From an uncultured Candidatus Saccharibacteria bacterium (GTDB taxonomy: Bacteria; Patescibacteriota; Doudnabacteria; UBA920): DNA of 64,000 nucleotides. Shown piece after piece: positions 25,168 through 48,406 of the stretch (its first letter is position 1; each line of letters begins with the position of its first letter). Under the pieces are notes generated by a model, which saw only the letters and a program-made list of their open reading frames with translations, was not told the DNA's origin and ran no database searches. Both the position numbers and the translations under genes were made by a program. The stretch is taken from assembly GCA_964600695.1 (NCBI GenBank), contig CAZRKK010000001.1, positions 168,647 through 232,646 of the forward strand, written 5' to 3'.

Positions 25168-25650
25168 TTATATTAACTTTGTAGCTGTATCCATACCAAA
25201 GCCGCGTGACATTAGTTTGCGCAAAACTTTTTGTTTCTCGTCATATTCTAACTTTTTGATTGCTTTTAAATCTGGGTATAATCTTTGTAAAAATCTCTTT
25301 GCAATTTCTAATTCATCAGACTCTGTTAGGAGCTCTGATAGTTTTTCTTCGATCAATTCTACTGGTAACTTCTTTTCGTACATCTTTTTCTTCATCATAA
25401 ACCTCCCCCAGCTTTTATAATTTTTCATGCTGTTAATAAATATCTCGGCATAGTTATCATCATCTAAATATTTATCTTGCAATAAACTGTTTATAACTTC
25501 CTTTACCACTTTTTGATCGTAACCCCGTTGCTTCATTTTTTCTTTTACCTCACCAACTGTGCGCATACTTAAATTGAGCAAGAATAAGGCATATTGATAG
25601 CCATGGTCATAATCAGAAGGGTCTTTTAATGCTCGTGCTTTTTTAAACAT
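25168..25650 (-). CDS. recX: RecX-like regulatory protein
   Basis: The 160-aa protein is all-helical. YALFLLNLSMRTVGEVKEKMKQRGY fits the RecX repeat pattern. Confidence 0.5.
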   Translation of the reverse strand: MFKKARALKDPSDYDHGYQYALFLLNLSMRTVGEVKEKMKQRGYDQKVVKEVINSLLQDKYLDDDNYAEIFINSMKNYKSWGRFMMKKKMYEKKLPVELIEEKLSELLTESDELEIAKRFLQRLYPDLKAIKKLEYDEKQKVLRKLMSRGFGMDTATKLI

Positions 25651-25746: not shown

Positions 25747-25775
25747 TTGACAATGCGACTAAAATAGCTTATAAA
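25747..25775 (+). promoter_or_regulatory. sigma70 promoter TTGACA-N17-TATAAA for clpC
   Basis: ttgaca at 25747-52 is followed by a 17-nt spacer and tataaa at 25770-75. Confidence 0.55.
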
Positions 25776-25779
25776 TAAA

Positions 25780-25806
25780 TTAGCAGTCTCCATTAAAGAG
25801 TGCTAA
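25780..25806 (+). promoter_or_regulatory. CIRCE-like inverted repeat (HrcA operator) TTAGCAGTC-N9-GAGTGCTAA
   Basis: It matches the consensus TTAGCACTC-N9-GAGTGCTAA at 17 of 18 positions with exact N9 spacing. It lies immediately downstream of the -10 element. Confidence 0.6.
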
Positions 25807-25864
25807 TATACTGTAACTAGCTTGTGGAATACAAGCCATAAACTAATTTAAAAATATCCTACTT

Positions 25865-28435
25865 ATGAACAACTTTGCCTTTATATTAGAAAGACTATCC
25901 AGTAGAGCCAAAAACGCCTTAATTGCGGCTCAAATGGTCTCTGAAGAACTCCATCACGATCACATCGGGACGGAGCATTTATTGTTCGGGGTTGTAGCAG
26001 AAAAGTCTAGCTTTGCTGGAGAAATCTTAACCAAAGCCAAACTTACCCCAGATCTGATCAAATTAGAATTGGAGTCAGTTAATCAGAATAACGAAATCAC
26101 TGTCTGGAAACCGGTATTATCAACCAATTTAAAAACCGCCATCGAAAAATCTGCCATCATCGCCAGTCAATATGGTTATCAATTTATTGGCACCGAGCAC
26201 TTTTTGTACGGGTTAATTACAACCGAACATAATAAAGCTCGTGTAATTCTTTCTAAACTAGGAGTTGATATTGGCGAACTCGAACACAACTTAATTACTG
26301 TCTTCGAAAATATTTCTAAATTCCCTGACATGCCTCAACAAGAAGGTAGTAACGCTAATCCAATGGGCGAACAAGGTGGTCACATGCATCAATCCCCTAT
26401 GCCTGGCGGTGGACCAGAAGCAAAGCGTGGCAACATGCTAGAGTACTTCGCAACAGACCTAACTAAAAAAGCTGCACAAGGTAATATCGATCCTGTAATC
26501 GGGCGTAAAAAAGAAATTGAACGTCTAATTAGCATTCTAGGTCGTCGCACTAAGAACAATCCTGTGCTTATCGGTGAAGCAGGAGTTGGTAAAACTGCAA
26601 TCGTCGAAGGTCTTGCTTTGGCAATCGCCAATCGTGAAGTTCCAGACAACCTACTTGATAAGAAAATTTTATCTTTGGATCTTGCTCTAGTAGTTGCTGG
26701 TTCGATGTTCCGTGGTGAATTCGAAAACCGACTTAAACAAATTATTGACGAAGTTAAAGCTAATCCAAACATCATCCTATTTATAGACGAACTTCACACC
26801 ATGATGGGTGCTGGCGCAACAACTGGTAGCTTAGACGCGGCCAACATTTTTAAACCTGCACTTGCTCGCGGTGAGTTAAGCACTATCGGTGCTACAACTT
26901 TAGCTGAATACAAAAAACATATCGAACACGACGCAGCCTTAGAACGACGCTTCCAACCAATTTTGGTAGAAGAGCCAACTAAAGAAGAATCTCTGGCTAT
27001 CCTAAAAGGAATCCGACCAAATTACGAAAAGCATCATAACGTTCATATTACCGACGAAGCTCTTCAAGCTGCAGTCGATCTTTCTGATCGATATATTCAA
27101 GATCACTTCTTACCAGACAAAGCCGTAGATTTAGTAGACGAAACAGCAGCTTTCTTACGAAGCATTCACAGTAATTCAAAGTTGGCTAAAACTAAACGCA
27201 AAGTAGAAATTGAACTAGAGCAATTAGAAGAAGAAAAAACGAAAGCAGTATTATCACAAGATTTTACTACTGCTCTACATTTACGTAGCCAAGAAGAGCG
27301 TTTACTAGCTCAAAAGAAAGAACTTGAAGCCATGGCCAAAGAAGACACAGGCCCAGTTTATTCAATTTCTGCCGAAGATATTGCTCATACTGTATCTTTG
27401 ATGACTAAAATTCCTTTGAAAAAGCTAGCTCAAAATGAAATCGGTAAACTTACTAACTTAGAAAAAGTATTAAAGACTAAAATCGTTGGTCAAGATGCAG
27501 CCATTACAGAGATCTCTAAAACTATTCGCCGTTCTCGAGCTGGGTTATCCGATCCAAAGCGCCCGATTGGTTCCTTCATGTTCTTAGGACCAACAGGTGT
27601 TGGTAAAACTGAAACTGCGAAGATGATTGCTCAAGAAGTATTCGAAGACGCAGATGCTCTAATTAGAGTTGATATGTCCGAGTTCATGGAACGTCACAAT
27701 GTTGCCCGTTTAATAGGTGCACCAGCAGGATATGTTGGATACGAAGAAGGTGGACGTTTAACCGAAGCAGTTCGACGTAAACCTTATGCGGTAGTCTTGT
27801 TTGATGAAATCGAAAAAGCTCACCCAGAAGTATTTAATATCTTATTGCAGATTTTAGAAGATGGGCAGTTAACTGACGCGCAAGGCAAGCGTGTTAATTT
27901 TGCTAACACAGTGATTATCATGACTTCTAATTTGGGTATGCAAGAACTGAACACTGCCGCAACAAAGATTGGCTTTGCAGACCGTGATGAAGCTAAGGAA
28001 ACCGAAAAAGTTAAGTTAGAAAATGAATACGAACGAATTAAAGCTGGTTTAGTAGAGAAACTCAAGAAGGAGCTCCGCCCAGAATTCTTGAACCGTATTG
28101 ATAAAATTATTATCTTCCACCCACTTGGTTTAGTTGATTTAAAAAAGATCACTCAGTTACAACTGAACGATCTCCAAAAACGCCTGGATATGCAAAAAAT
28201 TAGTTTTAAAACTACTCCAGCATTGATTAGATTAATTACCGAGAAAAGTTTTGACCCATTGCAAGGTGCAAGATATATTCGCAAGAGCATCCAAGATTTA
28301 ATTAGCGATCCTCTAGCCGAAGAAATTATCCAACAAAATCTACGCGAAGGCGCAACAATCACAGTTGGTGCTGAAGGAGATAAAGTCACCTTCAAAATCC
28401 AACAATCCAAAAAAGTTGCAGCGGTTCCAGTTTAA
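25865..28435 (+). CDS. clpC: ClpC-type AAA+ chaperone ATPase (Clp_N repeats, D1, short M-domain, D2 with an IGF loop)
   Basis: Two Walker A motifs (GEAGVGKTAI, GPTGVGKTETAK), a short coiled-coil middle domain and a KIGFADRD ClpP-docking loop are present. There is an insertion between the N-domain and D1. Confidence 0.8.
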   Translation: MNNFAFILERLSSRAKNALIAAQMVSEELHHDHIGTEHLLFGVVAEKSSFAGEILTKAKLTPDLIKLELESVNQNNEITVWKPVLSTNLKTAIEKSAIIASQYGYQFIGTEHFLYGLITTEHNKARVILSKLGVDIGELEHNLITVFENISKFPDMPQQEGSNANPMGEQGGHMHQSPMPGGGPEAKRGNMLEYFATDLTKKAAQGNIDPVIGRKKEIERLISILGRRTKNNPVLIGEAGVGKTAIVEGLALAIANREVPDNLLDKKILSLDLALVVAGSMFRGEFENRLKQIIDEVKANPNIILFIDELHTMMGAGATTGSLDAANIFKPALARGELSTIGATTLAEYKKHIEHDAALERRFQPILVEEPTKEESLAILKGIRPNYEKHHNVHITDEALQAAVDLSDRYIQDHFLPDKAVDLVDETAAFLRSIHSNSKLAKTKRKVEIELEQLEEEKTKAVLSQDFTTALHLRSQEERLLAQKKELEAMAKEDTGPVYSISAEDIAHTVSLMTKIPLKKLAQNEIGKLTNLEKVLKTKIVGQDAAITEISKTIRRSRAGLSDPKRPIGSFMFLGPTGVGKTETAKMIAQEVFEDADALIRVDMSEFMERHNVARLIGAPAGYVGYEEGGRLTEAVRRKPYAVVLFDEIEKAHPEVFNILLQILEDGQLTDAQGKRVNFANTVIIMTSNLGMQELNTAATKIGFADRDEAKETEKVKLENEYERIKAGLVEKLKKELRPEFLNRIDKIIIFHPLGLVDLKKITQLQLNDLQKRLDMQKISFKTTPALIRLITEKSFDPLQGARYIRKSIQDLISDPLAEEIIQQNLREGATITVGAEGDKVTFKIQQSKKVAAVPV

Positions 28436-39376: not shown

Positions 39377-41227
39377 TTATTTTATTTCTGCTAAATCTTC
39401 TTTGCTTTGTTCAATTTCTAGCAACTGTTTTGGGTCCGTGGTAATAATCTGGTCTTCCACATAAGATGCATATATCTTGATAGCTGCGTGCTTTAACCCA
39501 GCAAAGAAAATTCCTTCTCCAACATCACTTTCTAATAATAGATATTTCTCCCCTTCGGTTAAAAAGAAAGTTTCGGCAACAATATCTACAGCCGCAGGGC
39601 TTTGTTTAAGCAATAATTGAATTGAAGAGTTGGTAACAATTGGTTTACCATAACTACTAGCCATAAAGTCGGCTACGTCTTGAGTGATAGTAGTCAATCC
39701 TAAGTAATACTTACGAGCCCGCTTAGCGATACCAAATACGAATCGAGCAGAATCTTCATGTTGCATCATAATCCAAGCCTCATCTAATACCAAAATTCGG
39801 CGCTTTAATTGACTTCGCACCACATTCCAAATATGCCCCAAAATAATGTACATTGCGATTGGTCGAAGAGAATCTTCTAGGTCTCGAATAGAAAATACTA
39901 GTAGCTGATTTTGTAATACTACGTTAGTTTGGTTATTTAATAATCCTGCGAAAGTTCCTTCGGTAAATTTACCTAATCTCATAGCCAAAGATTCGCCACC
40001 GACCATTCCACTTAAAATTTCGATAAGATCGCTCATAACTGGCATTTCGACTGTCGCAAAATCAGATGTTTCGTTTATATCTTTCTTAGCGTATGTTTGC
40101 CACATAGCTTTATCTAAAATGGCTTCTTCTGTCGGATCAAGCTTACCTAAGACCAAGCCCATCAAGCCGATTAAATTAATAATGGCGCTACGAAGAATAT
40201 CACCCTTGTCTTCATCTTCTAAGCCAATTGGCAAATCGAATGGATTGATACGAAAATCTGAGTTTAAAGAAATATTTAAATAAGTTCCGCCAACAGCTTC
40301 GGCTAAATGCTGATATTCATTTTCTGGATCCACGACTATCACTTCGATACCCACCATCAATGAGCGGAGGATTTCTAATTTTACAGCATAAGACTTTCCT
40401 GCCCCAGATTTTGCAAACACAACAAAGTTAGCATTTTCCATCTGAAATCTATCGAACAAAATTAAACTGTTATTATGACGGTTAATACCATACAAAATTC
40501 CATCGTTACCGGTTAGATCCGAAGATACAAATGGAAAAGTACTAGATAGCGGGCTAGTGTTAAGATTGCTAGCAACATCAAGATCATCGATTGCAAGCGG
40601 TAATGTAGAATTATACCCTGCCTCCACAGCCAACAAAGCTCTTTTTGTCACTACTAATTTGGCACCCAAAGCACTCTCTAAAATTTTGGAGTTCTTGTCT
40701 AATTCTTCTAAGTTTTCGCAATAAAGGGTGAAGTACAACGCAAAACGGAAGAAATGTTCTACACCTTGCTGAAGTTCGTCACGCAATTCTTCTACGTCAT
40801 GATAAGCGGTTTCTAGCAAAGGATTACGAGCTAAACCTTTTTCTTGTTCAATAGTCATCTGAGAACCAATTTCACCCACCTTGCTACGCAATTTTTTTAG
40901 AACCATTCCGGAGTCGATTGGATAAATAAACATCGAAACATCCAAAGCACTCTCGGAGTTTATAATAAACGATAACCAATTTGTAGACAAGAATCGAGGA
41001 TATGCCAAAACAAAGAAGCTACGTCCAAATTTACCGTTTAGTTCAAAATACGAATTAGAAAATTTTAAACTACTTGGGGCAAGTAAATCTTTAAGAGTAG
41101 TAACACCTTCGCGATACTCTTTTTCGACTTGAGCCAACTTTCCCTCGGCAGAAATCTGCCCCTTAAGGTGCTCTAACTCTTCCTTCTTTTTGTCGAGCTC
41201 TGATTTGTTAAATGAAAATAAACCCAT
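39377..41227 (-). CDS. VirB4/TraE/CagE-family T4SS ATPase, C-terminal ATPase portion (616 aa)
   Basis: Walker A (FAKSGAGKSY) and Walker B (RILVLDEAWIMM) are present. The YPRFLSTNWL segment is typical of Gram-positive-type VirB4 proteins. Confidence 0.8.
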   Translation of the reverse strand: MGLFSFNKSELDKKKEELEHLKGQISAEGKLAQVEKEYREGVTTLKDLLAPSSLKFSNSYFELNGKFGRSFFVLAYPRFLSTNWLSFIINSESALDVSMFIYPIDSGMVLKKLRSKVGEIGSQMTIEQEKGLARNPLLETAYHDVEELRDELQQGVEHFFRFALYFTLYCENLEELDKNSKILESALGAKLVVTKRALLAVEAGYNSTLPLAIDDLDVASNLNTSPLSSTFPFVSSDLTGNDGILYGINRHNNSLILFDRFQMENANFVVFAKSGAGKSYAVKLEILRSLMVGIEVIVVDPENEYQHLAEAVGGTYLNISLNSDFRINPFDLPIGLEDEDKGDILRSAIINLIGLMGLVLGKLDPTEEAILDKAMWQTYAKKDINETSDFATVEMPVMSDLIEILSGMVGGESLAMRLGKFTEGTFAGLLNNQTNVVLQNQLLVFSIRDLEDSLRPIAMYIILGHIWNVVRSQLKRRILVLDEAWIMMQHEDSARFVFGIAKRARKYYLGLTTITQDVADFMASSYGKPIVTNSSIQLLLKQSPAAVDIVAETFFLTEGEKYLLLESDVGEGIFFAGLKHAAIKIYASYVEDQIITTDPKQLLEIEQSKEDLAEIK

Positions 41228-41228
41228 A

Positions 41229-41915
41229 TTATTTTTGTAAATCTTTAATCGTCACCTTAGTTAATTGCTCTGCGTCGATATTTGGGCCAGAAGCAAAATT
41301 GTAAGAGTTATAAACTAATTCAATTAATTGGTCGGTGTTAAGCTTTACGACTCGTAAACCAGAGCTAGATAACGACGCCGAGACGGTATTAGCTCTTTCG
41401 TCTAACTGCTTTTTGTATGTGACTAAATTAGCTTCACGGTCCGTGACAGCCTTGGTTTTACCGGTTCCAAATATACGGCTAAAAATACTGGTCGCAGCTG
41501 GGTTAATACTGGTATCGTAAGGAACGATAACATAAAAGTTCTTACTCATAACATTAGCTGACTCTACTAATCGGTCAATAAACTCTATATATTCCTGAGT
41601 TTGCATTCTAAGAAGTTCATTAGTCTGCTTTTCCATCATCACTTTAAGTCTTTCGGTATATTCGGCTATGTCCATTTTGCGAGACTGCATCAAAATTTGA
41701 ACATGAAATTCCAAAGAATTCAAAAATCTTTGGTAACTATACACCAAAGCATTTTGCTCCTCTTCGCTCTTTAAATCAAAATTAGTACTAGACACAGCCA
41801 ACACTGCACGCAATGTGCCATTGTCCATAATAATCACATCATCACGTATTTCTGCGAGACGTAAAAATTGCTGAGTTGGACTGCCAATTTGTTTTTTATT
41901 TTTTGTTATTGCCAT
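41229..41915 (-). CDS. VirB4 N-terminal domain encoded as a separate 228-aa ORF
   Basis: DDVIIMDNGTLRAVLAVSSTNFDLKSEEEQNALVYSYQRFLNSLEFHVQIL follows the VirB4/PrgJ N-terminal pattern (dG.l.....v.g.nf.l.s.ee). Its stop codon sits 1 nt before the ATG of the ATPase ORF. Confidence 0.6.
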   Translation of the reverse strand: MAITKNKKQIGSPTQQFLRLAEIRDDVIIMDNGTLRAVLAVSSTNFDLKSEEEQNALVYSYQRFLNSLEFHVQILMQSRKMDIAEYTERLKVMMEKQTNELLRMQTQEYIEFIDRLVESANVMSKNFYVIVPYDTSINPAATSIFSRIFGTGKTKAVTDREANLVTYKKQLDERANTVSASLSSSGLRVVKLNTDQLIELVYNSYNFASGPNIDAEQLTKVTIKDLQK

Positions 41916-41921
41916 TTGATT

Positions 41922-42383
41922 TTATTTAGCACGATCAGTTTCTCTATTTTTTTTAATTCGCTCGATCAGACTTAACTCTTCGGTTTGCTCTTTTTGTAAT
42001 AAATAATTTAACTCTTTAATCTTTACAGCGGTACCTTTTAAGTCCTTTGGTGCCTGTTTTTCTTCGGAAATTATTGGAATGTCCATTTCGACAGATTCTT
42101 TTCCTTGTTTATGGTAAACGTACAACTTTGGACCAAAAAGGTAACTAAAAAAGTTTCCTGCGCTGGCATAGAGTGGCCGCCCGTTCAATTTACCAAAAAC
42201 CAAAGCCAACGCCGGTAATCCTGTCAGAACTGCGGTTGTAATTGTAACTGCTAAGTTTTTACTTATTGTGTAAATAACAAAAGTAAACACGGCTGCACCA
42301 AAAATTATGGCAAACTGTTTAAAGGTTAGGCCGGCAATGATTTTATCTTCGACGTCTGTAAATTGTGGGACTGGAAATTGCAT
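41922..42383 (-). CDS. VirB3/PrgI-like small 2-TM T4SS protein
   Basis: The N-terminal EDKIIAGLTFKQFAIIFGAAVF (the LT.rQ motif) is followed by two TM helices, at 153 aa. It sits immediately upstream of VirB4. Confidence 0.55.
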   Translation of the reverse strand: MQFPVPQFTDVEDKIIAGLTFKQFAIIFGAAVFTFVIYTISKNLAVTITTAVLTGLPALALVFGKLNGRPLYASAGNFFSYLFGPKLYVYHKQGKESVEMDIPIISEEKQAPKDLKGTAVKIKELNYLLQKEQTEELSLIERIKKNRETDRAK

Positions 42384-42397
42384 ATATATTATATCAT

Positions 42398-43354
42398 TTA
42401 AAAACGATTAACCTTGAGAGAAAGGAGAATGTCGGCTATAAATTCAAATTCTTCTTGTGATAAAGCCAAATTATCTTTTTTACCCATTAACATACTCTTA
42501 CCGTAATTCAAATAATCTTGATACAAAGGGCTCTGCTCAAGATTTGTAACAACCTGAAAGTAACCGTACTGAGCCGCTAGTTCATTGATAGTCTTATGAA
42601 ATGTTTCTCGATTCTGTTGATGTAGTGCTGAGCTAGTGAGATTACTGATATCCTCAAACTTACTAAGAACCATTGTATTCATAGACGAAGATACGTCTCT
42701 AATCGGAGATTTAGGAATAGACAGCGGATTAACAGGCGGCATAGGGACAGTCTCTGTAGGCTTAGGACTTGAAGGTGGCATAGGTATCGAACGTGGCCTG
42801 ATCGGAGCAGCTTGAGAATGCATTGGCATCGGCGCAGAAATGGGTCGTGGTGCGGTTTGTGGTGCTGCTGGTGATGGAGCTGATTGGAAGGTTAGAGGGT
42901 CCTGTTTTTGATCTGAAAGTTGATTAGGTAAATTACTAATATGCGACAAAGACGAGCCACCTAATGGCTTTGGTGCAGTAGCAGCTGGTGGAGTAGAAGC
43001 CACTGGCGGTATTGGAGATACTGCTGGCACCGACCTAGTTAGTGGCACTGGCCTTGTTGGTGGCATTGGCTTAGTTGGCGCGGATGGTGTTGGTGGTGTG
43101 ACTGGTGTGGTTGGTGGCATCGCCACAACTTGTGGTTGCTGTTGCGGTTGTGGTTGTTGTTGCGGTTGTTGTTGCGGTTGTGGTTGAGCGACAGGTTCTG
43201 GCTTTGGTTTTTGTAAAATTTCTTCTAGCTCTGCAATTTGCTTATCATTCATCAATTCAATTAAAGCCATCCATTCATTTTTTTCTTGCTCGCTTAAAAC
43301 AGTAGCACTTCTTACTAAGTTTTGTATCTGTTTTAATTTTTGTTCGTTTAGCAT
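42398..43354 (-). CDS. Pro/Gln-rich low-complexity protein
   Basis: A (PQQQ)n tract and a long PT/PS-rich region are present, with no TM helix. Structured N- and C-terminal ends flank the tract. Confidence 0.45.
   Translation of the reverse strand: MLNEQKLKQIQNLVRSATVLSEQEKNEWMALIELMNDKQIAELEEILQKPKPEPVAQPQPQQQPQQQPQPQQQPQVVAMPPTTPVTPPTPSAPTKPMPPTRPVPLTRSVPAVSPIPPVASTPPAATAPKPLGGSSLSHISNLPNQLSDQKQDPLTFQSAPSPAAPQTAPRPISAPMPMHSQAAPIRPRSIPMPPSSPKPTETVPMPPVNPLSIPKSPIRDVSSSMNTMVLSKFEDISNLTSSALHQQNRETFHKTINELAAQYGYFQVVTNLEQSPLYQDYLNYGKSMLMGKKDNLALSQEEFEFIADILLSLKVNRF
43131..43195. repeat. imperfect tandem trinucleotide/nonamer repeat (gttgtggtt/gttgttgcg units) encoding the PQQQ tract
   Basis: The tandem run reads gttgtggttgctgttgcggttgtggttgttgttgcggttgttgttgcggttgtgg. 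Confidence 0.6.
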
Positions 43355-43358
43355 TTTT

Positions 43359-44339
43359 TTAACTTTTAGTTTGGCCCTTGTTTCTGTTCTTGAGTTCTTC
43401 TAGTTTAGTTCGAATTTTTAATTCTTTAAGTTTTTGCTCGGCACGTTTTTCTCTACTAACAGCCTCTTGTTTTAAGTCTATGTTAGTCGGAATGTCGAAC
43501 ACCAAACCTTTTTTAGGTTGAGTGCTTAGATCTAGATCTTTTTGAGGGGCTATTTTGTAAGGAGATTGGGGTGTTTGAGGTAGTTCAGGTTCTGGAATTA
43601 TGTTCTGATCTTTTATTGGTGGTATTTCTTGCGGAGGTGTTATTTCTGGTTCTTCAGAGATTGGCTCTTCTGCTACAATTGGCTGTTCGAGCTCTGCCCC
43701 GTACTCTTCTTCAAACTTTTTTACTGCCCAATCTTGAAACTCTCGAGTGTCCTCTGGTGACAACTTTTCTGGGAGCTCTTCATAAAGATTAACTAAAGAA
43801 TCGACTCTATCATAAATTCTAAGAATACTTTGCAAGGCCTTGCGCTGACCAATAGAAAGAATCTTTAAATTAGGGCCAGTATTTATATATTTCATCTCAC
43901 CTAAAGCATCTTTCATTTCTGGATTAACCATGGATTGATAATCTAAAATCCAGTTTGCAATAGTCGGAGTTACCTGCTTCCCGTTTACATTTATTTTTTG
44001 ATCACCTAATAATTCTTGATGATTTACTAAAATTGCTTTCAATTTATAGAGAAAATCTATTTGCACATCAACATATTCTAACAGTTCAAAATAATCTGCT
44101 AATCTACTATCTAGATCAAAATCAGGAATTTGATAAGCTGCTAGAATAGACTCTTTGATGACCCCCAATAGACGTTCGGAATCCAAAGCATTCATACGTA
44201 AATAGTTGAGGCGTAAATAATCCGTACGAGGTAACTGGATTTGACTATCTCTTGCAGCCGCAACTAAAACTTCCCATGCTCTTTGAGCGTCACGGAATTT
44301 TATAGCTTCTTCAATTTTTAATTGAATTTCTGGGATCAT
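43359..44339 (-). CDS. hypothetical cytoplasmic protein with an acidic Pro/Glu-rich C-terminal region
   Basis: The 326-aa protein has no TM helix. It is translationally coupled to both neighbours. Confidence 0.45.
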   Translation of the reverse strand: MIPEIQLKIEEAIKFRDAQRAWEVLVAAARDSQIQLPRTDYLRLNYLRMNALDSERLLGVIKESILAAYQIPDFDLDSRLADYFELLEYVDVQIDFLYKLKAILVNHQELLGDQKINVNGKQVTPTIANWILDYQSMVNPEMKDALGEMKYINTGPNLKILSIGQRKALQSILRIYDRVDSLVNLYEELPEKLSPEDTREFQDWAVKKFEEEYGAELEQPIVAEEPISEEPEITPPQEIPPIKDQNIIPEPELPQTPQSPYKIAPQKDLDLSTQPKKGLVFDIPTNIDLKQEAVSREKRAEQKLKELKIRTKLEELKNRNKGQTKS

Positions 44340-47300
44340 ACAACTATATGGGGTTTAAAGATTCTTGCAACCCTTGGAGTAGCCACTTCAACCAAAGCAG
44401 AAGCAACGTGATTTCCAATTGAGTTGACTTCTTCAGGATTAGACTCAAACTTGCTTAAAATATGATCAGCAATAGGTCTGTCGATTTTCTGTCGCAAACT
44501 CTTAGACTTTTCTTTTGTATCGTAAGCTCTCAACTTTTCCTTAATTTTCGCATTAAACTGTTCAACTCCGTTACTGTCAGTATGAGTAACATCGCCCTTT
44601 TTCCACTCTGTAACCTCTTTAACCTTTTTGGTTTCCAAAACTTGCTGTTGTTGGGTAATCGTATTTAATATCCCACCACCGTTTGCTAAACTTTTTACTG
44701 CGTTAGACAAAGAAGTGTTGCCATTTTTTTCACTAGAATTAGATACTTCACGAATTATGTTAATTTGAGACTTCCCACTAACCTTTCCAAATTTTTCCTT
44801 AACAAACCCAGCGAGGTCTTCAACATTGTTTTTCTTTCCACTAGCCTTAAGCAATCTATCCAAAACTCCATTATCGGCCATCTGCTTAAAATGGGCTCTA
44901 GCAGCTGCCATATTATTCTCTTGCAAAGCTTTGTTAAAACCACTCTCTAGTTGATCATAATCAAGATCACCAAGATTTTTTTGAATATCACGAGCTTCGG
45001 AATCTTCTTTTGCCGCCAAGGCTTTGGAGAAAGGTCTTTCTCTGTATTGAGCCTTTTCGGCATCATCAGATGCTTCTTTCATATACCTCTTACGAACATC
45101 ATCATCCATAGTTCCGGTAAAGCCTAATTCAGTCCTTATGTTATTGTCATTCGTCAATACAACCGTGGCATCAGAAATATCTGCCGTAAGCTTGGCTTTT
45201 GTAGCATCGATATTTCTATTGAAGTCAGTACCCATATCATTTATATCAATGTCATTTAACCCATTAGCATCCGCGATTCCAATTGCAACATCAAGGGTAT
45301 TTTTATCATTTCGAAGTCTAGCAACTTTTGCCCGAGTGCCTGGTGTGCTATTTTGGGAATCCTCGGCTTCTGCCGCATTTAACTTTCCTTCAATATCAGA
45401 CAAGTTATCTCTTGCCATTTCGATATCCGCACGACCATTATTAAGAGCATTTAAATATCGTTGGTTAGTATTGAGATTAGTTGCCAATTCTCCCATATCT
45501 GAGTCATTACGAATTTCTGTAAATCGTTTCTTCTGCTCAGCCTGAGTCATTAATTTTTTAGAATCTTGACCCATAGCTTTCCAATACGCCATCTTCAATG
45601 GGAATAGTTTATTTTCACCCCACGGCTGGAATTTATCGGTAACGTCACTGAACTTTTCGGTAAAGCGCTTGTTCATCTCTTCCTTAGGATTATCAAACAA
45701 ACCCTTCTTTATTGCCTTACCAGCTTGAATAGGACGAGCAACGCCCATAATTGCTTTTTGTAAACCAGGGCGACCCTTTAACATTTTTGAACTAGCTAGT
45801 GCATCAGCCCCAGTATCCTTAGCCCACTTACCAGCTGCGAGAGCGCCACGTCCTGCTGCTGCAGGAACAGTCTTAGTAACAAAATCAAATCCCTTCTTGG
45901 CACCATCAACAATTTGCTTAGCACCAAATGTACCACTCTTTAAAGCGAAGTGCATACCAGCATAAAGGAAAACCAAAACAACAAAGTGAGAGATGATTGT
46001 AATGGCATACTCTGTAATTTCTTTGGCTGGATCCATACCAGCAAAAAGATAACTTGGATTTCTACCAGCTTCCACTGCATCACCAGAACGAGAAGCGAAA
46101 GTTGTTGCCATCAACGCTGTTATATTCAAGAAGAATGCCAAAATCGGAACAGTAAAAGCGTACTTAATAAACTGAGACCACCACTGATCAAAATAACTTT
46201 TTGTCTCAGGAAGTATGCGTGCTACATATGCCAAAGGTGAAACCATATACAAAAGCCACAAAGCCACGAGTCGGACTAAAATAAAAGCAATCAAAGCAAC
46301 AAACGAGAAGAAAGATGCTATGGCTAAAATTAACAGTACAATAGGTTTTGTAATATCACTTGCACTTAATTGAACAGTAAAGTTACTGTTTTCGGTTATA
46401 TTTTCTGCGAAACCACCAGAGCTATCTTGTCCTCTAAAGAACTTAATCGGATCAACCATTAACTTTTGACCCAATGCTTCTATAACTTTACTTTCAGCAG
46501 GTAAAAATTGGGATTGCACAGTATCAGCTATCCCTACAACTCCTTGGGCAATGACTAAACTAAAGTTAACTAACAAAGCCATTAACACAAGCCATAAAAT
46601 AAATCCGCGTGACTTACCAGCATCATCAACTTGAAATAAGGTACGCAAACCCATCCACAACAAAGCCAAAATAAAACCAATGTTTGCTACGTTACGTAAG
46701 ATAATCCATCCAGGGTAAATAAAGTTAACAAACTGATCTTCGTATGGTCTGATTTTTAACAATGCATTTAGTATCGGTACTAATATAATCGCAAAAATCC
46801 AGTACAACACACTGGTCATCAAGAGCACTAAATAAGAGATGACCTTACGAAGGAAATTAAATAAGTCGCTACCAGCAGTTGTCTCAGACTTAGCTTCATC
46901 AGAGGTAGTGGTTTGGGATATTGGTTCTGCAAATCCAAACTTTGCAAAATTAGGATCTTTGCTACACTTTTCCTTATCTTCTGGTTTTACATCTGCCTCA
47001 CAAGCTGCAATGATATCCTTAATATCTTTATACACCTCAACAGTAAACTTTTGTAAATTTCCAGAGCCAGCAACTAAAATAACAGGGTTAACATAGCCCC
47101 CACCACCAATATATGCTTGTGGACCAGCAGTGCCTGTAACCCCAATTATACCTGGCAAGGCAACAAACTCTGCTTGACCGATCATCTTTCCGCTACTAGT
47201 ATTTGTAGTTGCAGAACTTGTAGCAGGTTTGTCGGTGGATGTTTTTGTGGTTTTATTCTTCCACGCAGCAGATTTTAAAATAGGTTTAAAATCACCTGGT

Positions 47301-48406
47301 ATTTGACCTGGGGCTGCTTCATCACCATTACCACTACTATCACCTTTCCTAAAAACCACCTTAGAGCAATTCGTCCCAATCCAACCCGCCTCACAGGCTA
47401 TAGGCACTATACTCTTTGCGGTATCGTAGTAACTAAAATAAACTGTACTATTTTTATAGATAGGTTGATAAGTAATCCCTGCTTGCTTTCCATCATCCTT
47501 CTTGGGTAGACTGAATTTCTGCTCCGGAACTAATTTTTTTGAACCCCACTCTAAATGAACAGCATCCAAACCAGCTGTGGTTCCAAAATTTAAATCACCG
47601 TCTGTCTCTAGTACTCGATATTTTGATCTTAAACCAGCACCACCTTCTTTTGGTTTAATACTAATAGGGATTGTTTGATAGTCAACTACTTCCCCTTCCT
47701 TTACATTAGTTTGACTATTACCACTCGCTCCTACTTCAGGCAAGGTTGTTTCTTCTGGACTATCAGACTTAGCCTTGTCGTGCTTCATGTTAACCTTACC
47801 AATCGAACCAGTTGAGGAACTTAAGGTTCCATTTTTGAAAAAATAACCATAAACACAGTAATTTGTCTGGTAAGTTCTAAGGCTAGTGTCTGATAAATTT
47901 TCTATACTCAAATTTTTTATTCTCGCCCTAAACATGTTTTTCTCTGGTACGAACTCTGCATCATAACCAGTTAAACCATTTCTTGCCACTAAAGAAGTTG
48001 CGCATGTACCTGCTACATTTTCACCATATAAAAATGGTGCAAAACTATATCCTGCCCCGTTATTTGCAGTCTTACAAGCATCGGAAGTTGCTTGATCTAC
48101 AACTACCTCCATATACATATCAAACTTTTCTTTTGTCCCGACCACAGATTTATTTGCTAGGACCCGATAACTCTTAAGGCCAGAAATGATAGTTCCTACG
48201 GAAATATTACAACTAGCCCCTCTAATTGAAGGGATAGATGGCAAGCTCAACTGCGCCTCAGCAACTTTCACCCTGATAGGTAAAACAGGCAAAAATAAAG
48301 AAGCAACGAGAATCCCTAAGATAAATCTTTGGAGAATTCCCCTGCTTATTTTTAATGAGTTTGGGGTTAAAAATTTAAGTAATTTTTGTATTGATTTCTT
48401 GGTCAC
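44336..48406 (-). CDS. giant VirB6/TrbL-like polytopic membrane protein (1356 aa) with a large N-terminal extracellular region, a roughly 6-TM core and a long charged C-terminal domain
   Basis: A signal/TM segment starts the protein. About 500 aa of hydrophilic sequence is followed by a cluster of 6 to 7 hydrophobic helices from aa 520 to 830. The final roughly 500 aa are a coiled-coil-rich charged domain. This architecture resembles expanded VirB6 homologs. Confidence 0.5.
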   Translation of the reverse strand: MTKKSIQKLLKFLTPNSLKISRGILQRFILGILVASLFLPVLPIRVKVAEAQLSLPSIPSIRGASCNISVGTIISGLKSYRVLANKSVVGTKEKFDMYMEVVVDQATSDACKTANNGAGYSFAPFLYGENVAGTCATSLVARNGLTGYDAEFVPEKNMFRARIKNLSIENLSDTSLRTYQTNYCVYGYFFKNGTLSSSTGSIGKVNMKHDKAKSDSPEETTLPEVGASGNSQTNVKEGEVVDYQTIPISIKPKEGGAGLRSKYRVLETDGDLNFGTTAGLDAVHLEWGSKKLVPEQKFSLPKKDDGKQAGITYQPIYKNSTVYFSYYDTAKSIVPIACEAGWIGTNCSKVVFRKGDSSGNGDEAAPGQIPGDFKPILKSAAWKNKTTKTSTDKPATSSATTNTSSGKMIGQAEFVALPGIIGVTGTAGPQAYIGGGGYVNPVILVAGSGNLQKFTVEVYKDIKDIIAACEADVKPEDKEKCSKDPNFAKFGFAEPISQTTTSDEAKSETTAGSDLFNFLRKVISYLVLLMTSVLYWIFAIILVPILNALLKIRPYEDQFVNFIYPGWIILRNVANIGFILALLWMGLRTLFQVDDAGKSRGFILWLVLMALLVNFSLVIAQGVVGIADTVQSQFLPAESKVIEALGQKLMVDPIKFFRGQDSSGGFAENITENSNFTVQLSASDITKPIVLLILAIASFFSFVALIAFILVRLVALWLLYMVSPLAYVARILPETKSYFDQWWSQFIKYAFTVPILAFFLNITALMATTFASRSGDAVEAGRNPSYLFAGMDPAKEITEYAITIISHFVVLVFLYAGMHFALKSGTFGAKQIVDGAKKGFDFVTKTVPAAAGRGALAAGKWAKDTGADALASSKMLKGRPGLQKAIMGVARPIQAGKAIKKGLFDNPKEEMNKRFTEKFSDVTDKFQPWGENKLFPLKMAYWKAMGQDSKKLMTQAEQKKRFTEIRNDSDMGELATNLNTNQRYLNALNNGRADIEMARDNLSDIEGKLNAAEAEDSQNSTPGTRAKVARLRNDKNTLDVAIGIADANGLNDIDINDMGTDFNRNIDATKAKLTADISDATVVLTNDNNIRTELGFTGTMDDDVRKRYMKEASDDAEKAQYRERPFSKALAAKEDSEARDIQKNLGDLDYDQLESGFNKALQENNMAAARAHFKQMADNGVLDRLLKASGKKNNVEDLAGFVKEKFGKVSGKSQINIIREVSNSSEKNGNTSLSNAVKSLANGGGILNTITQQQQVLETKKVKEVTEWKKGDVTHTDSNGVEQFNAKIKEKLRAYDTKEKSKSLRQKIDRPIADHILSKFESNPEEVNSIGNHVASALVEVATPRVARIFKPHIVV

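Follow-up and report, generated by a model that had tools for sequence, protein, structure and literature searches.

The locus examined here raises the question of how a Clp ATPase gene, clpC, is controlled in a member of the Patescibacteria, and in particular whether the inverted repeat just downstream of its promoter is an operator of the heat-shock repressor HrcA. All coordinates refer to the window, the whole stretch of 64,000 nucleotides (64 kb) that was analysed. The repeat at 25780–25806 is very probably a CIRCE operator for an HrcA-type repressor, which would place clpC in the class I heat-shock regulon. The CIRCE element lies on a conserved promoter and is conserved across a clade of relatives at clpC only; the identity of the binding protein and the heat inducibility of clpC are predicted from these observations.

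The 64-kb window was scanned with the CIRCE query TTAGCACTC-N9-GAGTGCTAA, allowing up to 3 mismatches. The sole match was 25780–25806, which reads TTAGCAGTC-TCCATTAAA-GAGTGCTAA with 1 mismatch, fits the consensus at 17 of the 18 arm positions and has a spacer of exactly 9 nt; the chance expectation for the window, estimated from shuffles, was 0.01 (1 of 100 shuffles gave a match). No CIRCE was found in approximately 20 kb of the same organism's DNA outside the window ends, and 25780–25806 is the only CIRCE in approximately 84 kb of this genome, including flanks taken from other assemblies. The features of the region are given below.

25168–25650, minus strand: recX, the divergent neighbour (RecX_HTH1/2/3 domains, NCBIfam RecX)
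25747–25752, plus strand: −35 hexamer TTGACA of the clpC promoter (from sequence; same distance in relatives)
25770–25775, plus strand: −10 hexamer TATAAA (5/6 against TATAAT)
25780–25788, plus strand: CIRCE left arm TTAGCAGTC (consensus TTAGCACTC; G at position 7)
25789–25797, plus strand: CIRCE spacer TCCATTAAA (length invariant at 9)
25798–25806, plus strand: CIRCE right arm GAGTGCTAA (perfect consensus)
25807–25864, plus strand: remaining clpC 5′ leader (second small hairpin; without an obvious Shine–Dalgarno sequence)
25865–28435, plus strand: clpC, 856 aa, class I Clp/Hsp100 ATPase of the ClpC type (Pfam, structure alignments)

The −35 and −10 hexamers are separated by 17 nt, the left arm begins after a gap of 4 nt, and the clpC ATG at 25865 lies 58 nt beyond the right arm. 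The initial annotation had reported a 17-of-18 match with the exact 9-nt spacer, placed directly after TTGACA-N17-TATAAA; both statements were borne out, by the window scan and by a layout conserved in seven loci, and its distance of 60 nt before clpC was about right. The consensus promoter scanner requires a T at position 6 of the −10, which TATAAA does not have, and therefore omits this promoter; the call is supported by seven diverged loci in which TTGACA-N17/18-TATAAA-N4-CIRCE is present with spacers unrelated to one another. TTGACA was found at the fixed distance in L001, L274/L208, L210, L213, L212 and L209, the sequence of the 17–18 nt spacer differing among them, and TATAAA is invariant across the seven diverged loci. 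Transcription of clpC is likely to start within the CIRCE left arm. Among 12 distinct sites of the window layout, the arms held 2.0 bits per position except at position 7, and the spacer centre was unconserved (0.04–0.8 bits). The fold of the leader (25778–25875) gave z = −2.35; neither its length nor its sequence is kept in relatives, and Rfam returned two tRNAs in the whole window and no match in the clpC leader. The second leader hairpin, GCTTGT-GGAAT-ACAAGC at 25820–25836, is not conserved in L001.

The product of 25865–28435 was identified as ClpC type on the basis of its domains, its single-stretch alignments to ClpC structures, its KIGF loop and its ClpB and ClpA scores, which fall below the NCBIfam equivalog cut-offs. 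The Pfam domains are Clp_N (two copies), AAA, UVR, AAA_2 and ClpB_D2-small, giving D1 and D2 modules and a short middle domain of the UVR type. The nearest solved relatives (S. aureus and B. subtilis ClpC, and M. tuberculosis ClpC1) each align in one end-to-end stretch, and the ClpP-docking tripeptide IGF lies in D2 within ‘TKIGFADRDE’. A ClpB identity was rejected: the ClpB structure aligns to this protein in two pieces, and the docking loop is present. Between the N-domain and D1 there is a low-complexity insertion rich in Q, P, G and M (26310–26430, residues approximately 150–190), which varies in length and sequence in every relative.

The nearest ClpC loci belong to metagenome-assembled genomes (MAGs) labelled Candidatus Saccharibacteria or Doudnabacteria (87–63% identity, one genome per species), and Firmicute ClpC is approximately 47% identical to the window protein. 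Wall genes (mreB, mreC, PBP2, murF and ddl) are present in the window and its flanks. On both grounds the host is a cell-walled Patescibacterium, neither a Firmicute nor a mollicute, and the analogy with wall-less bacteria drawn in the initial annotation does not apply to it. The same organism was found in GCA_044227685.1 and in several Logan runs. In addition to MreB, MreC and PBP2, the window (GC 38%) encodes RRF, several tRNA synthetases, GatA/B, an ECF sigma factor, RecG and RadA, together with a VirB4/TrbL-type secretion cluster and many open reading frames (ORFs) without a family match. This type IV secretion-like cluster (39377–48406, minus strand) includes a TraG/VirB4-type ATPase at 39377–41227 and, at 44336–48406 (minus strand), a TrbL/VirB6-domain protein of 1356 aa, and is flanked by ORFs without a family match.

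Comparison of the clpC upstream regions of relatives had been proposed as a test of the element, and was carried out on metagenome and genome loci. Used as the query of a metagenome scan, an alignment of the clade-specific ClpC N-domain gave 79 loci (710,705 bases); loci from both sources were counted if they had at least 150 nt of upstream sequence, and CIRCE was scored within 400 nt of the clpC start. At N-domain identities of at least 73%, CIRCE was kept with up to 3 mismatches in 38/44 loci, and in 42/44 with up to 4. Below 73% it was found upstream of clpC in 0/39, and no further CIRCE (up to 3 mismatches) occurred anywhere else in the 710,705 bases of relatives' loci. A one-mismatch CIRCE lies just 5′ of clpC in L001, L002, L005 and L006, which are all the relatives of at least 71% ClpC identity with upstream DNA, and the intergenic DNA around it is barely alignable among them. 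Loci without the element include L007 and L008 (both 63% identity), other Patescibacteria loci, and every Firmicute, Melainabacteria or further clpC locus that was retrieved.

The arm positions TTA.CA..C / GA.TG.TAA vary little or not at all across 35 distinct sites; invariant arms around a free spacer centre are the signature expected of a dimeric DNA-binding protein. The conservation of the site on the promoter speaks for a repressor acting on clpC, with HrcA the most plausible candidate, and to this extent the HrcA-dependent control put forward in the initial annotation stands; its Gram-positive framing does not. A symmetrical variant, TTATCACTC-N9-GAGTGATAA (G4T with C24A), is common in the clade (L214–L225, L231, L243 and others). 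Half-site pairs among the 35 distinct sites numbered 13 G/C, 13 T/A, 7 G/A and 2 T/C, a co-change with a Fisher p-value of 0.005, not corrected for phylogeny; the paired change hints at a relaxed or shifted repressor specificity. A decayed element, TTATCAAAC-N9-GAGTGATAA (left arm TTATCAAAC), was seen in L227:9879, L229, L232 and L234, and L211, L281 and L282, within the CIRCE-bearing clade, have lost the element and kept a plain promoter. Since some members have a decayed or lost site, CIRCE control would not be indispensable in the clade, and such sites show what appears to be ongoing turnover.

In a sister clade without CIRCE (ClpC N-domain 51–68% identical), the clpC promoter reads TTGAC(A/T)-N7-TATAAT-ATAAGTATAGTATA and a 20-bp AT-rich near-palindrome, TATAATATAAGTATAGTATA, lies over the −10 box (L260:9973–9992, L264:9974–9993, L269:9870–9889, L255:622–641, L008:2933–2952, L273:7413–7432 and others). 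At up to 3 substitutions this palindrome was found only upstream of clpC in approximately 0.76 Mb, and it may be the operator of some further regulator. Operators thus seem to turn over at the clpC promoter, because the sister clade uses a different AT-rich palindrome in the same place. L002 and L235 have a promoter core similar to that of the sister clade, with CIRCE downstream.

In every case CIRCE overlaps the core promoter, and three layouts were distinguished. Layout A, the window type, is TTGACA-N17/18-TATAAA-N4-CIRCE (seven diverged loci). Layout B has the −35 hexamer TTGAC(A/T) within the CIRCE spacer and the −10 approximately 17 nt later, and is carried by most metagenome loci and by L006 and L014. 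In layout C (L005, L237, L240 and L242), TTGACA lies directly next to the left arm, and a TAGACT −10 arises from GACTG, a variant of the right arm. In all three, a protein bound to both arms would be expected to occlude RNA polymerase. Two Saccharimonadia MAGs carry the element approximately 190–220 nt upstream of nusA, with clpC directly after nusA: L014 has a perfect CIRCE and L015 one with 2 mismatches, each overlapping a consensus promoter. In L014:1536–1756, TTGACA in the CIRCE spacer, N18 and TATAAT form a near-perfect promoter. There and in L015:1515–1686, a leader of approximately 190 nt with a terminator-like hairpin and T-run is followed by nusA and clpC, which suggests that putative HrcA control and attenuation are stacked on nusA, the gene for an essential transcription factor.

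The repressor itself was sought in several ways. Domain scans of the ORFs found no hrcA, groES/EL, dnaK or ctsR in the window; tblastn and a three-sequence HrcA HMM found no hrcA in the window or in the clpC-centred loci of relatives; the window ORFs left without annotation were rescanned against Pfam at E ≤ 1, again with no HrcA; and approximately 10 kb past each window end, read from other assemblies of the same organism, contained no hrcA (left flank, murF/ddl/glycosyltransferases; right flank, ileS/argS/smpB). With B. subtilis HrcA as query, all the protein matches listed were from Bacillaceae. In the cultured Saccharibacterium Southlakia epibionticum, SEML1_0720 (729 bp, 242 aa) is annotated merely as ‘transcriptional regulator’ (PMC10633639); it has Pfam PF01628 and PF03444, KEGG K03705 (HrcA) and a fold match to 1stz (PMC10633639, Wang et al. 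2023 supplements). It lies immediately 5′ of grpE and dnaK and is essential in all three Tn-seq conditions, and the ClpC of S. epibionticum is non-essential; the genome order is nusA-clpC-hypothetical-radA, as in L014/L015 (PMC10633639). At 242 aa it compares with approximately 340 aa for the HrcA of B. subtilis and T. maritima. Since S. epibionticum encodes SEML1_0720, the class in which NCBI places the closest MAGs does possess HrcA, and from this we infer the presence of HrcA in this genome as well.

Other readings of the repeat were weighed against these data. It is unlikely that the palindrome is a clpC operator for a different, lineage-specific repressor, for instance because HrcA was lost or another factor acquired its specificity. 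Such a repressor would suit the failure to find hrcA in the window, in the flanks of approximately 10 kb or in the relatives' clpC loci, the replacement of TTAGCA...TGCTAA by TTATCA...TGATAA in 13 of the 35 distinct sites, and the use of an AT-rich palindrome of quite another kind at the clpC promoter of the sister clade. The window site, however, fits the pan-bacterial CIRCE at 17/18 positions with exact spacing, an HrcA homologue is present and essential in a cultured Saccharibacterium, and we know of no protein besides HrcA that binds CIRCE. It is very unlikely that the repeat acts mainly as an RNA stem-loop in the 5′-UTR, governing the stability or translation of clpC mRNA (as a thermosensor, for example), and not as a DNA operator. 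In most relatives the −35 sits within the spacer or directly beside the left arm; with these layouts (B and C) transcription starts downstream of the left arm, which cannot then be in the RNA, yet the two arms are conserved to the same degree. The hairpin, moreover, ends 58 nt before the ATG and sequesters no ribosome-binding site. In favour of the idea, a start approximately 7 nt past TATAAA would put the whole repeat in the transcript, the repeat folds as a hairpin with 8 of 9 pairs (leader z = −2.35), and a destabilising role has been reported for transcribed CIRCE in B. subtilis.

The position of the site bears on the proposal that it regulates the divergent recX, or recX together with clpC, rather than clpC alone, which we consider highly improbable. 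The two genes have the 214-bp intergenic region in common, and in opposite orientation their putative −35 boxes overlap, the reverse complement of the clpC TTGACA overlapping a possible recX −35 (TTGTCA). Against this, CIRCE is situated between the clpC −10 and the clpC start, and in relatives it has clpC promoter elements within it. CIRCE travels with clpC and not with recX, because in L014/L015 the genes upstream of CIRCE-nusA-clpC are unrelated; recX is probably not the operator's target. There is a negligible probability that the repeat arose by chance or serves as a transcription terminator, without any part in regulation. AT-rich intergenic DNA can hold palindromes, but 0.01 were expected per window, and the element is kept in 38/44 relatives and missing from the rest of 0.71 Mb. 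The stem has no T-run after it, and there is no convergent gene; the conservation data effectively refute this explanation.

Under the preferred reading, repression of clpC by HrcA bound to CIRCE, the following sequence of events is proposed. In unstressed cells an HrcA dimer, kept active by GroEL/ES, would bind both arms and cover the clpC transcription start, and initiation or promoter escape would be blocked. Unfolded proteins would titrate GroEL, HrcA would lose activity and clpC would be derepressed. The extra ClpC unfoldase, presumably feeding ClpP through its IGF loop, would then clear damaged proteins. A hairpin formed by CIRCE in the 5′ leader might have a secondary effect on the transcript. 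Established CIRCE systems all use HrcA, whose activity depends on GroEL/ES (PMC7737663), and titration of HrcA by GroEL is established in other reduced genomes (PMC5138195; PMC7737663).

Compared with classical CIRCE/HrcA systems, the locus has the same 9-N9-9 inverted repeat, on or just past a sigma-70-type promoter, and the same repressor logic with GroEL titration is presumed (PMC7737663). It differs in that the target is clpC and not a chaperone operon, in that the organism is a Patescibacterium, in the symmetrical TTATCA...TGATAA carried by many sites of the clade, and in the length of HrcA, which, judged from SEML1_0720 of S. epibionticum, is approximately 242 aa in this lineage against approximately 340 aa classically. 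In Mollicutes (Mycoplasma, Spiroplasma), CIRCE is found on dnaK, clpB, lon and groESL (PMC5138195; PMC7737663), so that there too HrcA/CIRCE reaches an Hsp100 ATPase and proteases beyond the chaperonins in a reduced, regulator-poor genome. The Hsp100 of the Mollicutes is ClpB, a disaggregase without a ClpP-docking loop, whereas here it is ClpC with an IGF loop, and Mollicutes are wall-less Firmicute derivatives, whereas this organism encodes MreB, MreC, PBP2 and Mur enzymes. The initial annotation had cited CIRCE on a Clp ATPase gene in wall-less, genome-reduced bacteria; the precedent exists in Mollicutes, but for clpB and lon, not for clpC. A Firmicute-like, Clostridia-like contig (L151:986–1012) has a perfect CIRCE with TTGACG in the spacer and a TATAAC −10, approximately 95 nt upstream of a ClpB-type gene (seen in part), with an integrase adjoining. 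It resembles many relatives of the window in having the promoter inside the operator, and differs in its ClpB-type N-terminus and its Firmicute-like organism.

To our knowledge, CtsR is confined to Firmicutes. It is a repressor of Clp genes in Gram-positive bacteria (PMC3472708), and the initial annotation had expected it here on account of a Gram-positive-type clpC. The whole window was searched for the CtsR box (A/G)GTCAAA-NAN-(A/G)GTCAAA with up to 2 mismatches; no box was found near clpC, and the only match in the window, at 48401, compares with 1.33 expected by chance. No ctsR-mcsA-mcsB lies upstream of clpC, and no CtsR or McsB domains were found in the window ORFs scanned. The class III regulon (ctsR-mcsA-mcsB-clpC) is similar in having a clpC promoter with a dedicated heat-shock repressor and a ClpC approximately 47% identical, but the operator here is an inverted repeat of another sequence and not a heptad direct repeat. 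Control of clpC by CtsR was rejected, the upstream neighbour being a divergent recX, and the expectation was misplaced because the host is not a Firmicute and neither a CtsR box nor ctsR-mcsAB is present.

As CIRCE on Hsp100 and protease genes (clpB, lon) is documented in Mollicutes, clpC is a new regulon member in a new phylum, under a mechanism already known; HrcA regulons of reduced genomes have repeatedly absorbed Clp/Hsp100 genes, and the present case adds to this theme. In the literature searched there was no paper discussing HrcA in Patescibacteria/CPR, and, in the parts consulted, papers dealing with CIRCE, the HrcA regulon and clpC did not evidently describe CIRCE control of clpC. Gene regulation in Patescibacteria/CPR is almost unexplored, and the conserved CIRCE offers one of the few directly testable predictions, namely that clpC (nusA-clpC in Saccharimonadia) would be derepressed by proteotoxic stress through HrcA. 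The more unusual leads are the operator turnover in the sister clade, the symmetrical half-site variant and the CIRCE upstream of nusA-clpC. A combined account is offered tentatively, as a possibility that is less likely than not. CIRCE might have been recruited to the clpC promoter in one clade of Patescibacteria, where it would be read by a truncated HrcA of approximately 240 aa, essential in cultured Saccharibacteria; it might then have been re-embedded in three geometries and have drifted symmetrically to TTATCA...TGATAA, the sister clade keeping TATAATATAAGTATAGTATA over the −10 and core Saccharimonadia bearing CIRCE on nusA-clpC. If this were true, the heat-shock repressor would be linked, through CIRCE on nusA-clpC, to an essential transcription factor.

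CIRCE was also seen on viral contigs. The symmetrical variant TTATCACTC-N9-GAGTGATAA gave only coding-sequence coincidences in phages, and HrcA patterns on viral contigs matched only Bifidobacterium-like and Clostridia-like hrcA. A perfect CIRCE occurs in at least 120 IMG/VR contigs (loci L084–L203), on some of them in two or three copies, as in L140:5424–5548 (three copies 49 nt apart); further loci are L163:7037–7100, L148:4885–5243 and both ends of L099. These sites might mark prophage borders, reflect contamination, or mean that phages use the host's heat-shock operator. L204, also from IMG/VR, carries two CIRCE sites and hrcA beside an integrase.
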